From Prevotella sp. (GTDB lineage: Bacteria > Bacteroidota > Bacteroidia > Bacteroidales > Bacteroidaceae), in assembly GCA_045602085.1 (NCBI GenBank), contig JAZSAV010000039.1, positions 36,118 through 100,117 of the forward strand: DNA of 64,000 bases, given 5' to 3'. Of this stretch, positions 1,857 through 42,699 are shown in pieces. Position 1 is the first letter of the stretch; each line of letters opens with the position of its first letter. The translations under genes and the position numbers were made by a program. Below the pieces are notes generated by a model. The model was not told the DNA's origin. It did no database searches and saw only the letters and a program-made list of their open reading frames with translations.

Positions 1857-3242
1857 TTAATTAATACTATTTGAAACTAACTCGGAATAAATTTTCTGAC
1901 AGATATACTTTAAACGTAAACCATAATCATCACATATTGATTCTTGATTTCTTGACATTGCTTTAGCGTAACAACCTCCTCCACACAAAAATGCATATTT
2001 GCATTTAATGCATTTTTGTATATCCGTTATGTTTTTATTGAACCACTCATCTTTTTTCTTTGTCCAATTTAGTTTTGGTGAGTAAGTTCCAATGGCATTA
2101 TTTTGTTTTCCTACCATTTCAAGACAAGAAAAGATTCTACCATAAGGATCAAAAACGTAGGAATTACCATGCGCTACACAATGTATAGGAGAAAGTAACA
2201 ATCCTTTTTTATTTGTTAATGCAAATGAAATCTTTGAATACAAATTTGCTTCGAACTTAATTTTATTATTTGTGAGTTTCATTGCATCTAAAAAGTGTTT
2301 CCGAGACATATGTTTGCTTTTCAATGAATAATTATATTCAATCGGGTTAAAATTGCAATTACCAGAAATGTATTCTGCATAAACAGAGAAATTTTTCATA
2401 GAATAAAAGCCGTTATCTGTAAAATAATCATTCAATTCATGTAATGCCTCAATATTTTGAGAATCAACATTTATTCTTACTTGAATAGCGACATTTTTAT
2501 ATAGGGCTAATTTGATATTGTTGACTATCTTTTCAAAAGATTTGCCGTAAACAGCATGAATTCTTCTTGTATCATGTATGTGTTTGGGACCATCTATTGT
2601 TATTTGTATTCCTTTTAACTTATCTGGTGATAATAAATCTTCATAAGTGTCAATATCGTAACCATTACTTGTTGCAATGAATGTGAAACCATATTCTCTG
2701 CCTTTATTGATTATATATGTAACTATTTCTTTATTATCTTTGAGTAAAGGTTCACCTCCGAATAGTTGAATGCAATGATTGTGTAATTGGCTATTAGGTT
2801 CCAGTACTTTTATTGTTTCAAAAATTAAATCAACATATTCTTTTGTTATAGCTCTATTATTCTGTAATGATATGGTATCAATATTATCTTTTTCGAAGCA
2901 ATATGGGCATTTAAAATTACAATTATAGGTAACTAATATTGTAAATGATTTTTGCCACATATATTTATTCCTTTTTTGAAGGACTCGTACTATTCTTTTT
3001 GCATATTCCACCTCATCTTCTTCGCTCCACTTCGTAATGTAGCCTCTTTTTTCCAATGCCTCCATTGTTGTTTTAGAACATGGAATCTCTTCTTTGGAGA
3101 AATGTTTATGGTTTTGCAGGTACTCCGCAATATCTTTGCTGAGCACATCTATAGCCCCGGTATAGCCATGCATCATAAATACATTGTCAGGCTCGCTTTC
3201 GAGTGGCACAACGATTGAATATGATGAAAAACGATAATCCAT
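1857..3242 (-). CDS. Radical SAM/SPASM peptide maturase
   Basis: CNFKCPYC (CxxxCxxC), FGGEPLL, SPASM-type cysteines (C...C...CIKCKYAFLCGGGC...C); RRE-like N-terminal ~90 aa. Likely start is ATG 3242 (MDYRFSSY). Confidence 0.9.
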   Translation of the reverse strand: MDYRFSSYSIVVPLESEPDNVFMMHGYTGAIDVLSKDIAEYLQNHKHFSKEEIPCSKTTMEALEKRGYITKWSEEDEVEYAKRIVRVLQKRNKYMWQKSFTILVTYNCNFKCPYCFEKDNIDTISLQNNRAITKEYVDLIFETIKVLEPNSQLHNHCIQLFGGEPLLKDNKEIVTYIINKGREYGFTFIATSNGYDIDTYEDLLSPDKLKGIQITIDGPKHIHDTRRIHAVYGKSFEKIVNNIKLALYKNVAIQVRINVDSQNIEALHELNDYFTDNGFYSMKNFSVYAEYISGNCNFNPIEYNYSLKSKHMSRKHFLDAMKLTNNKIKFEANLYSKISFALTNKKGLLLSPIHCVAHGNSYVFDPYGRIFSCLEMVGKQNNAIGTYSPKLNWTKKKDEWFNKNITDIQKCIKCKYAFLCGGGCYAKAMSRNQESICDDYGLRLKYICQKIYSELVSNSIN

Positions 3243-3268
3243 AATCAGAATATATTGATGTCGTTCAT

Positions 3269-3646
3269 TTATATGATTGTCACAACCCCATAATAGCAAG
3301 TATTACCATTGATAATTCTCAGTTCATATTCGCCTGAAAGATTGTTTGGTAATACCAGCTCGTTTGTTCCCATAGGAATAACCACTTCATAACAGATATT
3401 TTCTGCTGCATCTACAATCTGCAATGTGTATCCATCACATGGAGTGGCAAAGTAAAGTATGTTGCCATTTAAATAGATGGTTGGGATGATTTCTGGAGTA
3501 CGAGGCTGTGGGTCTAAAATATCTTTTAAAGGTACATCACCAACATGAAGTTTTATCTGCTCGCCAACAAAATCCTGTTCTCCATTTGCAAATGACATCA
3601 TCGACATCATTAGCATGATTGCTGTAATAAATGTTTTCATCTTCAT
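3269..3646 (-). CDS. Small secreted DUF3244-like Ig-fold protein
   Basis: Signal peptide, PRTP motif, C-terminal GEYELRI...YYG typical of the Bacteroidota family. Confidence 0.65.
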   Translation of the reverse strand: MKMKTFITAIMLMMSMMSFANGEQDFVGEQIKLHVGDVPLKDILDPQPRTPEIIPTIYLNGNILYFATPCDGYTLQIVDAAENICYEVVIPMGTNELVLPNNLSGEYELRIINGNTCYYGVVTII

Positions 3647-3670
3647 AATTTATAGTTTTATTTACGTTGG

Positions 3671-3795
3671 CAAAATTATGAAAAGGAAATATAATAACAA
3701 AAAAAAGTGCGTACACTTTGTACACACCTAATTGGGGGTAAAAATAAGCTACTGTATTACAGGAGGATACGCTGGTAGTACATTTTGTACACACC
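3671..3795 (-). promoter_or_regulatory. TAnnTTTG promoter element plus two TTTGTACACACC direct repeats
   Basis: TAATTTTG on the minus strand near 3671-3678; 12-bp repeat at 3717-3728 and 3784-3795. Confidence 0.5.
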
Positions 3796-3803
3796 CAAAA
3801 GTT

Positions 3804-5423
3804 TTAAAGATTCTGCATGTTCTTGTTTAGTGAACCAGCTCCTTTCTCACCGAAAAGTTTCTGATTTGCGGTGCTTCTAATGTTTGTTACTCTCTGTTTC
3901 GTTAGAGAAAGCAGAACACCAATCATGGATGAGGAATAGCCCATTTTTGATAATAGGCAAACATGTATTTCTCTTTGTGTCAATTCTGGATTATTGTTCA
4001 TTAAGCGTTCACAGAAAGAAGGCATATACTTTTCCATCGCTTCGATGAAATCGTTTAATTCTTCATCTGATATTCTTTTGCCTGTTGTTGCAAGGACATC
4101 AAGATGCTGCATAATAGGACTTTCATATAATGCTCGTGAACAGTCCCATTTCTCTGTAGAGGTATTGTCGCCAAGAATAGATAATGATAATTTGAGTTCA
4201 GCCAATTCGGCTTCTTTAGTTTCTATATATTTATTATGGTCTCTCCTAAGTAACTTTAGGTCGAATGCCGTTTCTTTGTATTTGTTTAAAGTGTCCTTGT
4301 ATATGGCTTCTGCTTTGTTTATTCTTTTCTTTTGCCTAATAATATATAATGTAATGATAAAGGCAAGTGAGCAACCCAAAAGACAGAACAAGAGCATGGA
4401 GTTTCTATATCGTTCTGCTTCTTGCTCTTTTATTTTTGCCTGTCGTCTGCTCGCATTATAGTTGTAAAGCGCGTTGGCTCTATTTATCTCTTCTGCTGAA
4501 CTGATTAGGCAAGCAGAGTCGTTGGCATTGGCAAAGAGCAGAGAGTATTTCATAACGGAGTCTGGTTTGCCGAGTTTGTGGTAAACTTCCATCAGACCCT
4601 TATAGGCATTTTCATAATATACAGATTTATTGCTATTATTGAGAAATTTTTTATAGAAATAAAGTGCAGAATCTACCTTATTGATGCCATTGTAATATTT
4701 TGCCTTATAATAATAGAATAATATTCTTTTTTTAGAGGTGTTTACAGAATCGTCAAACAAATTCATTTTAGTTTCAAACAAATCTATCAAAGGCTTGGCT
4801 CTGTCATATTGTCCATTGTTTAAATATGTTGCAAAAAGGGAAGGCAAAACGGCATACGCCTGTTTTTCATGACCTAATTTCATATGAATATTATATGATT
4901 CTTGTCCTATATGCAATACGGAATCATAACGACCTGTTAAATCGTATATAGATGCTAAATGTGAATAGAAGTTAAGTATGGCAAGTGTGTCATTGCATTT
5001 CATTGCTATATGAAGAGCATTTAAATTTGCTTCTTTTGCAAACTTTGGTGATCGCTGATAGTAAAACAAATCTGCCATCTGTCCATAAATCCTACTCAGT
5101 CGTTGGAAGTCGCAATCGGCATCGGTGGTGTCTGCCTTGCTTACGGCATCGTGGTAGCACTCAAGGGCACGAGGGGCATCGCCAAGGTCGCGATAGACGC
5201 AGCCGAGGAGATAGTGGGCGAGCATCTGCTCGTTGGCAGTGCCGTGGCTGTCGTAGTAATCGACAACGCGCAGCATGGTGCTGTCGGTGGTGAACGGTTC
5301 GAAGTTCTCGTTCTGTGCTTTTGCCTGCATCAGGGCTTCGTGCATCTGCCTGCTGTCTTCGCCTGTGCAAGCGAAGAATGTGAGCAAGGCAAAAAGTATA
5401 ACCAATATATTTCTCGTAAACAT
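3804..5423 (-). CDS. TPR-repeat lipoprotein-like sensor with transmembrane helix and C-terminal LuxR-type HTH
   Basis: Lipobox-like FFAC, TPR-like helices, TM segment MLLFCLLGCSLAFIITLYII, LTQREIHVCLL...RVTNIR HTH. Likely start 5423. Confidence 0.75.
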   Translation of the reverse strand: MFTRNILVILFALLTFFACTGEDSRQMHEALMQAKAQNENFEPFTTDSTMLRVVDYYDSHGTANEQMLAHYLLGCVYRDLGDAPRALECYHDAVSKADTTDADCDFQRLSRIYGQMADLFYYQRSPKFAKEANLNALHIAMKCNDTLAILNFYSHLASIYDLTGRYDSVLHIGQESYNIHMKLGHEKQAYAVLPSLFATYLNNGQYDRAKPLIDLFETKMNLFDDSVNTSKKRILFYYYKAKYYNGINKVDSALYFYKKFLNNSNKSVYYENAYKGLMEVYHKLGKPDSVMKYSLLFANANDSACLISSAEEINRANALYNYNASRRQAKIKEQEAERYRNSMLLFCLLGCSLAFIITLYIIRQKKRINKAEAIYKDTLNKYKETAFDLKLLRRDHNKYIETKEAELAELKLSLSILGDNTSTEKWDCSRALYESPIMQHLDVLATTGKRISDEELNDFIEAMEKYMPSFCERLMNNNPELTQREIHVCLLSKMGYSSSMIGVLLSLTKQRVTNIRSTANQKLFGEKGAGSLNKNMQNL

Positions 5424-14075: not shown

Positions 14076-15674
14076 TTATATCTCTTCAAACAGATTGCCC
14101 CATGGGTAACTACCGGGTTTTAATATGATGCGCATATTGCCATGGGAGAGGCAGACGACGCCGGGCGAGTATTCATATTCTACATCGAAGGAACTGATGC
14201 CAAGGCGCTGAAGAACGGTGTAGGCAGTGGCGCCGCCTTCAATGATTATAAGAGTTGAGTGCTTCGCAAGTTGACAAGTTGACGAGTTGACGAGTTGACA
14301 AGTTGCTTGTTTCAGTTGACGAGTTGACAAGTTGCTTGTACTTGGAGGTAATGTCTGCACTCCTTCACTCCTGCACTCCTTCACTCCTTGTTCAGGTAAT
14401 GTCTGCACTCCTACACTCCTGCACTCCTGAACTCCTTGAACAGGTGATAAGATTTGATATGCCATTTCCCCAAAGAGCTTTCTAAGTCTTACGGCATACT
14501 CCTTGCCGCCAGTGGCTTCGTGACCTATGCGGACAATCATGGCATCGTGGTTTTGCCAATGGTCTTTGAGGGTTGCAATCCATGCGTTTGTTTCTAGAAT
14601 AGAAGCGGTTCCATGGAATACGTCTTCGGGCATGGTCACCTCAATGGCGTTCCTATCGGCAAAGAAGGGTTCGCCGATGAGCGAGCGGCTCTGGGTGCTG
14701 CCGCAGAGGATGAGTTTTTTTTCAGTTGACGAGTTGCTTGTATCAGTTGACAAGTTGACGAGTTGACGAGTTGACGAGTTGCTTGCATCAGTTGACAAGT
14801 TAACAAGTTGACGAGTTGACGAGTTGCTTGTACTTGAAGGTAATGTCTGCACTCCTAATAAATAATCCACCACCGCCTCAAACATATCGGCACCGCCGGC
14901 AAACAGGGTGTCGTTGTCGGACTTTGCGACATGCTCTCTGATTTCTTCGAGGGTGGTGGCGTCGGGGAGGAGAATCCCCCTCCCGTCCTCCCCCTTGGGG
15001 GAGGAAATAGATAAGAGATGAGAGCTTGGAGATGAGGGATTGCTTGTCCAGCTATTGTCTGAACTCCTACACTCCTGCACTCCTGCACTCCTTTTTAAAA
15101 GTTTCTTCGCCTCCGCCGTCCTTGCCGGAAACTCGGGGTCGTAGGCGAAAGATGTCTGGTCGAGTGGGGTGCCGTTTATATAATAGATGCCGTCTTTCAC
15201 TATTCTTCCCTTAGATGGGTTCTGCGGTATCAGCAATGCCTTCTGCTTGCCTGTTACCCTCATGAGTGCCTGTAACTCCGCCGCTACGTGACCTCGGAGG
15301 ACGGAGTCGGTTTTTTTGAAGATGATATCAGTTGACGAGTTGACGAGTTGACAAGTTGACAAGTTAACAAGTTGACGAGTTGACGAGTTGCTTGTACTTG
15401 AAGGTAATGTCTGCACTCCTACACTCCTGCACTCCTGCACTCCTGAATATAAACAAGTTGCCAGTTCTTCAATCGTTTTCACCGCCTCTTCCTCCGTGCC
15501 TGAGCGGGTGTCGGTGGCGAGAATAAGAGCCTCACCCCCTGCCCCTCTCCATGATGAGAGGGGAGTTGTTGGCACATTAGGTTGGTAAACCATCAACCAA
15601 ACCTTCATTCCCTTGCGCCATGCAATGCCCGCTATCTCGGCAGCTCCGGTTATGTCGTCGGCAATTATTAGCAT
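14076..15674 (-). CDS. DUF1537-family four-carbon acid sugar kinase (DtnK/DenK-like) with five repeat-derived in-frame inserts
   Basis: ADDITGA, FKKTDSVLRG, PQNPSKGR, EGGATA and KPGS motifs in order. Likely start ATG 15674. Confidence 0.85.
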   Translation of the reverse strand: MLIIADDITGAAEIAGIAWRKGMKVWLMVYQPNVPTTPLSSWRGAGGEALILATDTRSGTEEEAVKTIEELATCLYSGVQECRSVGVQTLPSSTSNSSTRQLVNLSTCQLVNSSTDIIFKKTDSVLRGHVAAELQALMRVTGKQKALLIPQNPSKGRIVKDGIYYINGTPLDQTSFAYDPEFPARTAEAKKLLKRSAGVQECRSSDNSWTSNPSSPSSHLLSISSPKGEDGRGILLPDATTLEEIREHVAKSDNDTLFAGGADMFEAVVDYLLGVQTLPSSTSNSSTRQLVNLSTDASNSSTRQLVNLSTDTSNSSTEKKLILCGSTQSRSLIGEPFFADRNAIEVTMPEDVFHGTASILETNAWIATLKDHWQNHDAMIVRIGHEATGGKEYAVRLRKLFGEMAYQILSPVQGVQECRSVGVQTLPEQGVKECRSEGVQTLPPSTSNLSTRQLKQATCQLVNSSTCQLAKHSTLIIIEGGATAYTVLQRLGISSFDVEYEYSPGVVCLSHGNMRIILKPGSYPWGNLFEEI

Positions 15675-15870
15675 ATTAATTTTTAGTTGACAAGTTGACG
15701 AGTTGACAAGTTGACGAGTTGACAAGTTGTTTGTATTAGTTGCCCCCAACCCCCCTTTTCAAGAGGGAGCACAGTTTGCTTTTGTTACAAAATCCCACCC
15801 AAAAATGGGAGGTTAGGATAAGGTTTCTCATCCCTAATCTCCTCCCCAAGGGGAGGATGGGAGGGGCTTT

Positions 15871-16893: not shown

Positions 16894-17042
16894 GTTATTT
16901 TTTAGTTGACAAGTTAACGAGTTAACGAGTTGACGAGTTGACAAGTTGTTTGATTGAGTTGACAAGTTAACGAGTTGACAAGTTGTTTGATTATACATGA
17001 ATATTTTTCAGTTGCACATAACTCGTCAACTCGTCTACTTGT

Positions 17043-18194
17043 TTACTCGTTTACTAGTGAAAAATAAATCCCCCTCGCATCCTCCTCCGTCACCTCGCGC
17101 GGATTATTCTTGAGGAGGCGTTGAACGCCCATGGCTGCCTTTGCCATGCCGTCAACGGCCGAGGCAGGGATGCCCAGTTCGGTGATGGTGGTAGGAATGC
17201 CGCAATCCTTAGAAAGTTGGGTGATGAACTCCACACCCTTGAGAGCCGTTTCCTCGTCTGATGCTCCAGGAGCAACGCCGCAAGCCAATGCCACCTCGGC
17301 ATATTTCTTTGGATTAGCGCAGATGTTGAAGCGCATCACCGCTGGCAGAAGAATGGCATTTGAAAGACCGTGAGAGAGGTGGAACTCGCTTCCAAGAGGG
17401 TAGGAGAGAGCGTGGACAGCCGCCGTGTTCACAGGTCCGAGGCATAATCCGCCATACATGCTACCTAAAGCCAATGCCTCGCGTGCCTCCACGTCGTTGC
17501 CGTTTTTCACCGCACGGAGCAGGTTGGCGGCTATAAGACGAATACCCTGCAAGGCATATACATCTACTACGGGATGAGCAAACTTGTTGGTGTAAGCCTC
17601 AAGACAATGCGTCAGAGCGTCCATGCCCGTCTCGGCGGTTACCTTTGCCGGCACGCTCCATGTCAGTTGCGGGTCGATATAAGCAGCATCAGCCATAAGG
17701 TGAGGACTCACGATGCCCTTCTTCATGTTGTCGCGCTCGTCGAGCAGGATGGCGTTTGGCGACACTTCGCTACCCGTTCCTGCCGTTGTAGGCAGACAGG
17801 CGAACCATTTGCCGCGCTGCTTCACGAAACCGATGCCAAACAAGTCTTCCACCTGTTGCTCGCTATCCACGAGAGCAGCCACGAGCTTTGCCACGTCGAG
17901 CACGCTTCCGCCGCCCACGCCCACTACGCTATCTGCCTGGAACAGGCGTGCTGCTTCAAGCGTCTGTTTAAAGTCGTTGACACTTGGTTCTTGCATAATG
18001 TTTTCATACACCTCGATGCTGATGCCTTTGCTCTCGAGCGTTTCGATCATCTCTGCAATCATCGGTCGTATGACGGGCACGGTGAGCACGAAAAGTCTCT
18101 TGTGCCCCAATGCGATATAGTCGTCGCAGAACTGCTTCAGGCATCCTGTGCCGAATACTATCTTGCCGGGTTGTAATAGGGTTATGTTGTTCAT
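17043..18194 (-). CDS. Iron-containing alcohol dehydrogenase family protein
   Basis: GGGSVLD, PTTAGTGSE, DALTH, HALSY..HLSHG. Confidence 0.92.
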   Translation of the reverse strand: MNNITLLQPGKIVFGTGCLKQFCDDYIALGHKRLFVLTVPVIRPMIAEMIETLESKGISIEVYENIMQEPSVNDFKQTLEAARLFQADSVVGVGGGSVLDVAKLVAALVDSEQQVEDLFGIGFVKQRGKWFACLPTTAGTGSEVSPNAILLDERDNMKKGIVSPHLMADAAYIDPQLTWSVPAKVTAETGMDALTHCLEAYTNKFAHPVVDVYALQGIRLIAANLLRAVKNGNDVEAREALALGSMYGGLCLGPVNTAAVHALSYPLGSEFHLSHGLSNAILLPAVMRFNICANPKKYAEVALACGVAPGASDEETALKGVEFITQLSKDCGIPTTITELGIPASAVDGMAKAAMGVQRLLKNNPREVTEEDARGIYFSLVNE

Positions 18195-21391: not shown

Positions 21392-21655
21392 AATTATAAT
21401 GTTTTAGTTTTGTTGTTATTTTCAGGTACAATTTTTCTTATTAAGACGTAAAAACCTTTATTTTGTAACCTTTTCGGCGAAAAATAATTGATTTTCACTT
21501 AAGATTTTTTAATTTTGCATGGTGTAATGAGTTGACAAGTAAACAAGTTGACGAGTAAACGAGTTAAATGCTGATAGGGCGAGCAAATCGTCAATATGTC
21601 AACTAACACAAGCAACTCGTCAACTTGTCAACTCGTCAACTAAAAAAATATAACC

Positions 21656-22444
21656 ATGCTCGGCACAATAGTAAACACATGTACGATAATAGTCGGTTCG
21701 GTGGTGGGCGCGCTGCTCAACCGCGGAATCAAGGAGAAATATAAGAACGTGCTCTACACCGGATTGGGACTTGCCTGTTTGGCTATTGGTCTTAACGCCA
21801 CAGTTACCAACCTGCCTAAGAGCCAGTATCCCGTACTCTTCATCGTGGCCATCTCCATTGGTGGCGTCATCGGTACAGCCCTCGATATTGACGGACGGTT
21901 TAAGAGAAGAGTTGACAAGTTGAGTCATTCAGTTGACGAGTTGACAAGAAGTTCCTTGAGTGAAACGAAAAAACAAGTTGACAAGTTGTGTGATTCAGTT
22001 GCAAATAACTCGTCAACTCGTCAACTCGTTGACTCGTCAACTAATAAAACCCTCGCCTCCGGCCTCAGCACCGCCGTACTCGTCTATTGCATAGGTCCCC
22101 TGTCTATGCTCGGTCCTGTGATAAGTGCGCTCAAGGGCGACAACACCTTTCTCTATACCAATGCCACGCTCGACCTCGTGTCGTCGGTTGTCTTTGCCTC
22201 GACCTACGGCATCGGCATGATACTTGCCGCCCCTGTGCTCTTCCTCTGGCAAGGACTGTTCTATCTTGTGGCATCACTCTCGAGTCAGGCAGTCAGCGAA
22301 GCCCTCATGGCAGAACTGCTCATCGTAGGCGGAATGATGATAACCGCCAGCGGCCTCTCGCTCCTCAACCTCAAGGATTGCAAGACGCTCAACTATCTGC
22401 CCGCTCTGCTCGTGCCAGTGGTTTGGTTCTTGGTGGTGGAGTGA
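21656..22444 (+). CDS. DUF554-family membrane protein with repeat-derived insert
   Basis: MLGTIVN..TIIVGS, YCIGPLS.LG, LD..SS.VFAS.YGIG, LP(A)L motifs. Confidence 0.85.
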   Translation: MLGTIVNTCTIIVGSVVGALLNRGIKEKYKNVLYTGLGLACLAIGLNATVTNLPKSQYPVLFIVAISIGGVIGTALDIDGRFKRRVDKLSHSVDELTRSSLSETKKQVDKLCDSVANNSSTRQLVDSSTNKTLASGLSTAVLVYCIGPLSMLGPVISALKGDNTFLYTNATLDLVSSVVFASTYGIGMILAAPVLFLWQGLFYLVASLSSQAVSEALMAELLIVGGMMITASGLSLLNLKDCKTLNYLPALLVPVVWFLVVE

Positions 22445-33826: not shown

Positions 33827-33970
33827 GCCCCCTCCTGACCTCCCCGAGGGGAGGAATCTGAAAGGAGTATAGGAGACAGGAGTGAAGGAGTTTAGACGTA
33901 TGCTTGACACGCGCTTCTGACTATGTTTGAACAGTTTAGCCTACTATTGTCTGCACTCCTGCACTCCTGA
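33826..33970 (+). mobile_element. MITE/REP-like composite repeat, copy 1
   Basis: Near-identical inverted copy at ~39950-40093; 75-bp core 33886-33960 with 12-bp imperfect inverted ends. Confidence 0.7.
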
Positions 33971-34065
33971 ACTCCTTCACTCCTTAAAAAAGCAATCAGC
34001 TTGTCAACTCGTTTTTTCGTTTCACTCAAGGAACTTCTCGTCAACTTGTCAACTAAAAAAATATA

Positions 34066-35886
34066 ATGAAAAAGTCAATTCTATTAGTTCTAATCTGCCT
34101 GTTGTCGTTGACAACAAAGATTTATGGTATTGTACCAAGTGACTATGTCAAACCGTCTGTTGTAACGCCCGAAGGCGCATGGTGCTGGTTTGCCGACCCG
34201 CGTGCGTTGCACTATGAAAATGCCGATGGTTCCATCAATAGCACATACATCGGTTATATTGATGTGCATGGCAATGTTAAGGCAATGCAATATGATTTTA
34301 ATACCGGTGAGCAGGCAGAGGTGCTTGTCCGCTCTTATTTCCAACCCGACGACCATAACAATCCCACATTCCTGGTATTGCCCGACGAGCGTGTTATGAT
34401 ATTCTACTCTCGCCATACCGACGAGCCATGTTTCTATTATCGTCTGACGGAGAAAAAGGGTGATATAACAACGCTTGGCGAGGAAAAGCGATTGGCTACC
34501 GACCATAACACTACCTATCCGTCGCCATTCGTACTGAGCGACGACCCTAATCATATCTATCTCTGTTGGAGAGGCATCAACTGGCACCCGACCATTGCCC
34601 AGTTGTCAATGCCCGATGCTCAGGGTGAGATACACTTCACTTGGGGACCTCATCAGTTGGTCAAGTCAACAGGTGCTCGTCCGTATGCTAAGTATCAGTC
34701 GAACGGCAAAGACAAGATTCTGCTTGCCTATACAACAGGACATCCCGATAATGAAATGCCCAACCATTTGTATTTCAATTATATAAACATAAACAAGAAG
34801 ACCATTGAAGATGTGGCGGGGAATACGTTGGCTGACATCTCAGCAGGTCCTCATCGTGTTGACAAGACACCTTCTTACGGCGAGAAATATCCTAAGGCGG
34901 TGGTCGATGCTCCTACACAATGGCGCGACTGGTTGTGGCAGGTAACGGCAACGCCCGACGGCAAGCCTGCTATTGCCATGGTGCGAATAAACGATGCCAA
35001 GAACTCGCATCATTATTATCTGGCACAATGGGACGGCAACCAGTGGCAGAAGACCTATCTTGCTGATGCCGGTACTCATTTCCATCAAACTCCAAACATA
35101 GAGAAATGCTATAGTGGCGGCATGGCTATCGACCCGGCTAATCCCAAGGATATCTATTGCTCCGTTCCGGTTGAGGGTGCTAACGGCAAGCGCTATGAGA
35201 TAGTGAAATATAGCGTTCAGGCGGACGGTTCGGTGAGGAGCACTCCTGTAACTGTCAACTCAGAGAAGAACAATGCCCGTCCGTATGTAATTCCTGGGTC
35301 AGAGGTTTCTCCGTTGCGTCTTATTTGGATGCATGGCGACTACTACGATTGGATTGTAAGTCGTCAGCGTCCTGGCTATCCTACGGCAATATGGGCAGAT
35401 TATATTGCTCCGACGGTTAAGGCTGACACTCTGAAGAAGTTGCTCGACGGAAAAAAGCGACAGAGTTTCGCAGGCAAGCGCAAGCTCGGAGACTTCTCTC
35501 TTGTGGTTGACGTTAAGCAGCAGGATGGGGTGTATCCTCAAACGCTTTTGACAATAGGCAACCTTACCGTTGCATTGGAGGCAGAAACGCTTAAGCCTAT
35601 AGTCAAGGTAGGGCAACAGACGTATGAGAGCAGCAACCGCTTGGTAACGGCAGATTCTTGGTTGCAACAGAATCGCAGTACCAATGGCCGTTGGTATAAG
35701 CCTTCTCTCCACAAGAAACTCAGCTATGCCGTGGTTTATGGCGACAACGTCATAAAGACTTATGTCAATGGTCTTCTCGACCAGAAGATTGCGATTTCAG
35801 AACCGCTCTATGGAGGCAACTGCTCCGACGGCAAACTATATAAACGAGCATTGAATCAGCAAGAGATAAAGTTGCTTGTCCGCTGA
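34066..35886 (+). CDS. Secreted BNR-4-type propeller glycoside hydrolase, probably GH143 (Dha hydrolase), with LamG-like C-terminus
   Basis: GAWCWFADPRA, QPDDHNNP, TYPSPF, ARPYAKY, TTGHPDN, CYSGG, RPY motifs recalled as resembling the N-terminal module of B. thetaiotaomicron BT1020; not verified by search. Confidence 0.6.
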   Translation: MKKSILLVLICLLSLTTKIYGIVPSDYVKPSVVTPEGAWCWFADPRALHYENADGSINSTYIGYIDVHGNVKAMQYDFNTGEQAEVLVRSYFQPDDHNNPTFLVLPDERVMIFYSRHTDEPCFYYRLTEKKGDITTLGEEKRLATDHNTTYPSPFVLSDDPNHIYLCWRGINWHPTIAQLSMPDAQGEIHFTWGPHQLVKSTGARPYAKYQSNGKDKILLAYTTGHPDNEMPNHLYFNYININKKTIEDVAGNTLADISAGPHRVDKTPSYGEKYPKAVVDAPTQWRDWLWQVTATPDGKPAIAMVRINDAKNSHHYYLAQWDGNQWQKTYLADAGTHFHQTPNIEKCYSGGMAIDPANPKDIYCSVPVEGANGKRYEIVKYSVQADGSVRSTPVTVNSEKNNARPYVIPGSEVSPLRLIWMHGDYYDWIVSRQRPGYPTAIWADYIAPTVKADTLKKLLDGKKRQSFAGKRKLGDFSLVVDVKQQDGVYPQTLLTIGNLTVALEAETLKPIVKVGQQTYESSNRLVTADSWLQQNRSTNGRWYKPSLHKKLSYAVVYGDNVIKTYVNGLLDQKIAISEPLYGGNCSDGKLYKRALNQQEIKLLVR

Positions 35887-42477: not shown

Positions 42478-42699
42478 GTTTATAATGCTTAATTTTTAAT
42501 GCTTAATGCTTAATTGTTTGTTGAGTAGACGAGTAAACAAGTTGACAAGTTGCTTGTTTGGTTGACGAGAAGTTCCTTGAGTGTAACGAAAAAACAAGTT
42601 GTTTGATTTAGTTGATGTGTAGATTGGTCAATGGGATTTGATAACACTGACGGTATCAACTCGTTAACTTGTCAACTTGTCAACTCGTCAACTTACTCA

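Follow-up and report, generated by a model that had tools for sequence, protein, structure and literature searches.

A hairpin-bearing 27-bp core nested in short tandem-repeat arrays of Prevotella appears to have been copied recently and is carried in frame by a DUF554 gene

The window analyzed here is a stretch of 64,000 nucleotides from Prevotella sp. (GenBank assembly GCA_045602085.1, contig JAZSAV010000039.1, positions 36,118 to 100,117 of the forward strand). The source genome, designated G000, comprises 3.39 Mb in 49 contigs and is 91.6% complete, and the genomes compared were all metagenome assemblies. The window contains an intact gene for a DUF554 (YqgA-like) membrane protein (Table 1), whose product matched Pfam PF04474 with an E value of 6.4e-66 (257 residues over 219 profile positions). 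In this gene lies a palindromic element whose left arm consists of forward GTTGACRA units and whose right arm consists of TCGTCAAC units. The element is predicted to form a long hairpin both as DNA (-29.2 kcal/mol, z -4.1) and as RNA (-46.5 kcal/mol, z -3.7), with a 27-bp core occupying the unpaired apical part and being read as 12 extra amino acids. An insert of about 40 residues in a loop of the DUF554 protein had been proposed in the initial annotation, and comparison with orthologs agreed with this: the loop is longer by 35 aa than in the usual ortholog and by 32 aa than in the nearest strain, and the LDIDGRF-to-LLYCIG stretch spans 37 aa in 43 of 80 related loci and 72 aa in G000. An AlphaFold2 model of the protein (mean pLDDT 46.8) was too poor for placing the loop.

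Table 1. Coordinates of the features in the window and of related features elsewhere in the source genome (G000)
Feature	Position	Strand	Remarks
Core-less array palindrome	16899..17050	-	spacer between pdxA and the Fe-ADH gene
DUF554 (YqgA-like) membrane-protein gene	21656..22444	+	intact ORF, 262 aa
Array-armed palindromic element, 132 bp	21911..22042	+	in-frame loop VDKLSHSVDELTRSSLSETKKQVDKLCDSVANNSSTRQLVDSST
Core copy 1	21948..21974	+	with flanking bases encodes LTRSSLSETKKQ
Composite intergenic element	33951..34054	-	core at 34011-34037 (-)
Intergenic array-armed palindrome	42520..42693	+	core variant, T at position 16, at 42569-42595 (+)
Core copy 4	C20:156791		exact match
Core copy 5	C39:29297		3 mismatches
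Degenerate core relative	C31:148872		within GAAGTTAT-type array
PF05635 gene	C13:216668-216982		GTTGACRA arrays
PF05635 gene	C25:53194-53511		different array unit
PF05635 gene	C13:199479-199793		different array unit
PF05635 gene	C38:47108-47404		different array unit

The core, GAAGTTCCTTGAGTGWAACGAAAAAAC, is present as an exact match at all three window sites where it had first been noticed, and GTTGACRA octamer units adjoin each of these copies, again as described. No match to the core pattern arose by chance in 100 shuffles of the window, and the window has 40 matches to two-unit GTTGACRA arrays where 0.05 would be expected. The second copy belongs to a composite element located 12 bp upstream of an ATG at 34066, in which a CACTCCTN array is followed by a linker, an A-array unit, the core and further A-array units. 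The third lies in a palindrome between two minus-strand genes. The reverse-orientation arrays at 21619-21640 and 34038-34054 terminate in an A-run immediately upstream of a start codon, that of DUF554 in the first case and that of the gene at 34066 in the second. A genome-wide search of G000 yielded two further copies outside the window; altogether G000 has five copies and one degenerate relative. This genome also has 137 GTTGACRA array clusters, and in a typical array-armed element the units of one arm are forward and those of the opposite arm are reverse. Every core copy in G000 and in the genomes designated G225 and G396 is located in GTTGAC/GTAGAC octamer arrays. The arrays are not strictly required for the core, since a few copies (L113, L119 and L130) have no adjoining array. 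A sister core variant, GAGTTTCCTTGAG-CTATG-CGAAAAAAA, was observed in GAAGTTAT-type arrays, preceded by a mini-hairpin module CGCTTCGC; it occurs at four sites in a close relative, G417 (C14:46291, C31:24841, C50:25836 and C50:36598), and at one site in G000 (C31:148872).

How an intact gene accommodates such an element can be seen from its reading frames. Three consecutive forward GTTGACRA units always give a TGA codon, and the DUF554 core (or a GTAAAC unit in the allele P0016) stands exactly where a third forward unit would make this TGA. The core itself has a single open forward frame, the one used in DUF554, and the other two forward frames run into TGA. The element thus survives in DUF554 because it is stop-free in that frame and orientation and because its length is divisible by three. 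In distant orthologs the start of the loop natively reads R-L-V-D-K (GTTGACAAG); therefore the ancestral DUF554 already had one array-like unit. It is plausible that this unit was the seed or landing pad for the element, which would have entered a naturally variable loop with the ancestral sequence GTTGACAAG (V-D-K). The extra peptide probably adds no function to the protein and is simply tolerated as a passenger. In other Prevotella species (loci L095 and L119) the same loop carries a GC-rich hairpin repeat of the CCCCTCCC...GGGAGGGG type; because this repeat is a different one, repeats have entered the loop on more than one occasion.

Arrays are also found in other genes. Long open frames of G000 contain 47 GTTGACRA clusters. 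When in-ORF arrays of at least 22 bp were considered, 29 of 32 were in the stop-free orientation, with (TCGTCAAC)n on the coding strand, two were palindromic and one was forward. As (TCGTCAAC)n is stop-free in all frames, we read this bias as in-gene arrays passing a selection filter for the stop-free orientation. A four-carbon acid sugar kinase gene (SBD_N and NBD_C domains; window 14076-15749, minus strand) remains open over 557 aa with GTTGACRA arrays, CACTCCTN arrays and GC-rich hairpins read in frame in five or more places. Very long ORFs of G000 (934-1958 aa) have two or three 30-bp arrays each, which read ..NSSTRQLVNSST(E/K).. (C7:1771, 2869, 4302 and 6555; C15:52916 and 54440; C20:451777, 453001, 505721 and 506426). 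They usually come after an array of the GGAGTK type and a CAGACAATA linker, so the whole may be a composite insert of stereotyped build.

To follow the core between genomes, we compared G000 with G417, the genome that contains locus L024 (MAG RGIG2070, goat colon) and is 94-99% identical to G000 around the studied sites, and with the sister species G225. G417 and G000 have the two intergenic window copies in common, in the same variants and orientations and with the same adjoining array units. The ortholog of the 34011 copy (G417 C48:57364) is identical in the core and A-array units and differs by an indel in the neighboring CACTCCTN array; the ortholog of the 42569 copy (G417 C48:67241) has the same core variant. 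The other three of the five G000 copies, those in DUF554, at C20:156791 and at C39:29297, are missing from G417. In DUF554 the two genomes show a clean 96-bp difference, for which the choice between a gain in G000 and a deletion in G417 is not settled. At C20:156791 the flanks are 99% identical; the inner segment of G000 has the core, and the one that G417 and G225 have in common is without it. At C39:29297 a different array element is common to G417 and G225, and G000 has a GTTGACRA-plus-core element in its place. Because the outgroup G225 agrees with G417 at both sites, the C20 and C39 copies are gains in G000. It was also observed that at the latter site (G000 C39:29200-29360, compared with L250 in G417 and L251 in G225; flanks 94-98% identical) the whole intergenic array element in the spacer between an FKBP-type gene and the next gene is swapped for another array type, with the look of a cassette-style replacement.

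G225 has five core copies of its own and none of them is at a locus that carries a copy in G000, so that the ten G000 and G225 loci are all distinct. At each of the five G225 loci the orthologous gap is present in G000 and has no core. One example is the core-less palindrome of the window at 16899-17050, whose G225 ortholog (L117) includes a core copy with two mismatches. The core is thus a discrete module with very recent gains at array sites and complete turnover between sister species.

The DUF554 gene further provides an allelic series. The proteins compared are 91-97% identical to the G000 protein, and DNA was checked in backgrounds that are 95.5-98% identical. Public alleles carry LTRSSLSETKKQ zero, one or two times. 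The allele P0034 has a minimal palindrome and G417 and P0035 a mini-palindrome, all without a core; P0016 has full arms and a GTAAAC unit at the position of the G000 core; G000 and most other alleles have one core; and P0019 and P0020 have two cores 45 bp apart. The core is likewise absent from DUF554 of G225 and from the allele P0032. Empty-site alleles, by which the proposed dispersal was to be checked, therefore do exist: P0016, which is 97% identical, has the ordinary unit GTAAAC where G000 has the core, and in this filled/empty pair the core replaces the unit with a net difference of 21 nt, so the frame is kept. Array units in the gene are gained and lost in steps of 8 aa (three octamers), and in a G225-like sister-species group the loops of 51-82 aa consist of arrays only. 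Local unequal recombination is also acting at DUF554, as it changes the number of units and doubles the core in tandem.

These data bear on one alternative, namely that nothing moves, that the copies are old, vertically inherited remnants and that strain differences reflect local slippage or deletion in arrays. Two copies are indeed stably orthologous between G000 and G417, variation in the number of array units is clearly local, the doubled core is a local event, and a deletion could have produced the DUF554 allele of G417. However, slippage of 8-bp units can account for the arrays and cannot produce a unique 27-mer, which was found at new loci; at C20:156791 and C39:29297 the agreement of G225 with G417, in flanks that are 94-99% identical, speaks against it, as do the ten non-overlapping G000 and G225 loci and the 98% identity over 55 bp between the C20 copy and the window copy at 34011. 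We consider this alternative very improbable. The gains in G000, the non-overlapping G225 loci and the filled and empty alleles instead favor, as far as sequence comparison goes, the copy-and-paste dispersal that the initial annotation had preferred to local slippage, and they support the view that copying of the core from one short tandem-repeat array to another took place recently in gut or rumen Prevotella.

In a sample of 400 species genomes of the genus, the core was found in three (G225, G302 and G396), with 4-5 copies each; with G417 included, carrier genomes have 4-6 copies. A search of 144 genomes belonging to 34 further genera of the family gave no core. The distribution is patchy, because several species without the core are closer to G000 than G396 is, going by DUF554 identity alone. 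A metagenome scan gave 110 core matches, 96 of which were a variant with a CATAG center in human-gut contigs. On one of these contigs, L158, a gene groups with proteins of Xylanibacter rarus in clustering at 90% or more, and an assignment of the human-gut contigs to Prevotella copri was rejected, as the named members of this gene's protein cluster are Xylanibacter rarus. The flanking array differs between carriers: it is GTTGACRA in G000, G225 and G417, GTAGACRA in G396 and some rumen contigs, AAAGGAGW in G302, and GGAGTTAA in the human-gut contigs.

Contig L158 also has a 1.4-kb interval (2900-4330) with two inverted core copies, 1.3 kb apart, at its ends. The idea that these are the ends of a larger element was dismissed, as the interval has no ORF of more than 112 aa and appears by eye to be mostly stacked repeat modules. 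One core copy of the human-gut type was seen in a 44-kb viral contig from IMG/VR (L232:13652-13677), about 0.9 kb from phage-like genes, one for a peptidase of the S24 repressor type and one for an AAA_24 protein that carries a LAGLIDADG/Hint insert; the copy may lie in phage DNA or in a host flank.

Although the core-bearing species compared have flanks only 67-80% identical to those of G000, the core varies little or not at all at 22 of its 27 positions among 21 distinct variants. The center of the core is a mini-hairpin with a nearly invariant G13-C19 pair, a Y14-R18 closing pair and a free triloop that occurs in eleven different forms. Positions 14 and 18 can pair in every variant: 11 have C-G there, 8 have T-A and 2 have T.G. 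The covariation score was reached by 1 of 500 shuffles and rests on few independent changes, because the variants are related to one another. The stem has two Watson-Crick pairs, or six if T-A and tandem G.A pairs are counted; T9-A23 and T10-A22 together with the tandem G.A pairs could extend it. Some variants spell GCGNAGC, a motif described as an extraordinarily stable DNA mini-hairpin (PMC13037366). In a search of Rfam, no family reached gathering thresholds; permissive searches returned only miRNA-precursor look-alikes far below threshold, as for a generic hairpin, and a known RNA family was rejected. The first 9 bases resemble the arm of the yeast FLP target site; with no inverted partner present, this likeness was treated as a coincidence.

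It could be argued that such a core is a selected host cis-element, for instance a DNA site that binds a protein or has a structural role, or a signal for RNA processing, with its scatter reflecting site turnover. The conservation of 22 of 27 positions across species would fit this, as would the low and similar copy number per carrier (4-6) and the location of many copies less than 150 bp from a start codon. However, the copies show no preferred orientation with respect to neighboring genes (19 sense, 18 antisense, 14 convergent and 5 divergent), and on this ground a promoter, a terminator or a strand-specific RNA element was rejected; moreover, an A-run follows the hairpin, so the core is not a terminator on either strand. 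G000 and G225 have no locus in common, the other 397 of the 400 sampled species of the genus showed no core, and Rfam gave only the sub-threshold generic hairpins. With no orientation preference, no positional conservation and a coding copy that is polymorphic (zero, one or two among strains), a host cis-function is less likely, and we regard it as an unlikely explanation.

Features of the copied tracts point to how the core may spread. The C20 copy and the window copy at 34011 are so similar over their 55 bp that the window element is the likely donor, and the array units beside the C20 core are not those of G417, which shows the site as it was before insertion. Two G225 loci (L109 and L112) have at least 125 bp in common. 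Copied tracts therefore range from about 55 to 125 bp or more, are often longer than the 27-bp core and end inside arrays. We looked for fixed element ends among the core copies and found none. No target-site duplication was detected at the copies either, since the RA dinucleotides on the two sides agree for 3 of 5 copies in G000 and 2 of 5 in G225, which is chance level. The copies are also clustered. Four of the five G000 copies are within 50 kb, for which P is 7e-5 under uniform placement and 2e-4 to 4e-4 when array clusters are taken as landing pads, and three G225 copies lie within 23 kb, in another part of the genome than the G000 cluster.

To explain these observations, we propose that the core is a small, non-coding and non-autonomous module nested in array-armed palindromes, copied locally by recombination and tolerated in frame in DUF554; we would give this proposal an even chance of being correct. 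Array-armed palindromes with inverted arms of 8-bp tandem units occupy spaces between genes and loops of proteins in this Prevotella. Copying may occur by ectopic gene conversion or by replication template switching, with flanking array units serving as the homology, and a very stable mini-hairpin might stall synthesis and so promote a template switch and its own copying. Recombinational copying would account for variable tracts that end in arrays, co-transferred units, the lack of target duplication and local clustering. It should be noted, however, that the 22 of 27 positions are conserved despite unrelated arrays, which is the main point against this proposal and fits sequence-specific recognition by some factor. 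Homology for recombination is also weak at C39:29297 because the replaced element had different arrays.

This leads to a second reading, that a trans-acting enzyme (for example HUH/RAYT-like or another nuclease-recombinase) uses the core as its cis site, which would make the core a nano-transposon with arrays as its preferred targets. REP/RAYT and IS200/IS605 systems act through small hairpins (PMC3116915, PMC3733652), and the core combines conservation across species despite unrelated arrays with a free triloop and a covarying closing pair. Copies without adjoining arrays and the patchy distribution (3 of 400 genomes of the genus, 0 of 144 from 34 other genera) are also consistent with an enzyme. 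On the other hand, no Y1/HUH transposase domain (Y1_Tnp, PF01797) was matched in G000, which is 91.6% complete, while controls matched in 6 of 14 genomes. The absence of target duplication and of fixed ends, the co-transfer of array units and the variable tract length do not favor an enzyme, nor do a stem far shorter than REP stems and the finding of no recurrent neighbor gene beside core copies. We retain this reading as a minority possibility, clearly behind recombinational copying, because the core is conserved across species with unrelated arrays. A related idea, which we hold with low confidence, is that the core is the recognition site of an undescribed Bacteroidota mobilization or DNA-processing activity that acts on GNA-type mini-hairpins and places them into short-period arrays. 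If so, this activity could also build and reshuffle the array-armed elements, and the low-copy, recently active family, present also in Xylanibacter rarus-like human-gut contigs, would be a tractable entry point to it.

A different potential source of the array arms is a set of four full PF05635 genes (23S rRNA IVS/Avd-like four-helix proteins) in G000, each bracketed by inverted short-period arrays (Table 1). The core as a remnant of such a cassette was rejected, as only chance 7-10-mer matches were found and the two were not adjacent in the loci fetched. The cassettes stay a lead for the array arms.

Whatever drives the copying, mobile-like repeats so small are rare. The present family offers dated gains (at sites that are 94-99% identical), alleles with zero, one and two copies in one gene, and a hairpin that can be mutated. 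It also points to a route by which repeat DNA may enter proteins, through a loop that was already repeat-like and in the sole stop-free frame and orientation. In practical terms, the repeats inflate and diversify predicted proteins of Prevotella MAGs, which matters for gene calling, pangenome clustering and gut or rumen strain typing. A literature search found no such elements described in Prevotella, and the repeat strings appeared only in two unrelated matches. What is new here is the conserved nested core, the dated gains and the allelic series.

Several known systems share part of these properties. Bacterial simple sequence repeats with units of 7-8 nt are treated in PMC4692102. GTTGACRA arrays are like such long repeats in their short period and strain-to-strain variation in unit number, but they occur as inverted pairs, and slippage cannot create or disperse a unique 27-mer. 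MITEs have inverted ends, are non-coding, have hairpin potential and can fuse in frame with host ORFs (reviewed in PMC10969869). The array-armed element likewise has inverted arms, no coding capacity, hairpin potential and possible in-frame fusion; it differs in that no target-site duplication was found. No fixed TIR and no cognate or parent insertion sequence were seen, and its arms are inverted arrays of strain-variable length. The PF05635 genes, which are bracketed by similar arms, are not known transposases and have no similarity to the core.

REP/REPIN sequences with their RAYT proteins are short, non-autonomous hairpin repeats, often near gene ends, that disseminate within a genome (PMC3116915, PMC3733652). 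The core is also a short, hairpin-bearing and non-autonomous repeat, but it has a far shorter stem, exists in a handful of copies and is nested in arrays, and no RAYT/Y1 match was found in G000. REP sequences are imperfect palindromes of 20-40 nt tagged with GTAG or CGTC; the core lacks GTAG and does not fit this description, and CGTC is present in the array unit TCGTCAAC.

For the whole array-armed elements, the closest analogues are Rickettsia palindromic elements (RPEs), dispersed palindromes of about 150 bp that occur in intergenic regions and in frame in working genes, to which they add a conserved encoded peptide (PMC10969869, PMC3733652). Similar to RPEs, the array-armed elements are dispersed and palindromic and add a peptide in frame to a tolerant part of the protein, and in DUF554 the ORF is open and conserved. 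They differ in having 8-bp array arms of variable length and a modular structure in which only the 27-bp core is conserved, and there is no sequence similarity. The peptides also vary with array type and frame, and the elements vary in length between strains.

For the nested core, the closest likeness is to the small dispersed repeats (SDRs) of cyanobacteria, for which we know of no target duplication and no enzyme. These repeats of Nostoc and other cyanobacteria (Elhai et al. 2008, Genome Res 18:1484) are reported to be 21-27 nt long, some with a short hairpin, to be nested in other repeats including short-period tandem arrays, and to be present or absent in conserved contexts. The core is likewise a dispersed 27-nt unit with a short hairpin, nested in short-period arrays, present or absent in conserved contexts and free of target duplication. 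It differs in that it belongs to Bacteroidota, has only 4-6 copies per genome, is translated in one of them, sits in octamer arrays that form inverted arms, and is copied in tracts of variable length that include array units. The two are probably unrelated in sequence, and the likeness is drawn by description; by analogy, the nested core of Prevotella and the cyanobacterial SDRs may share a mechanism.
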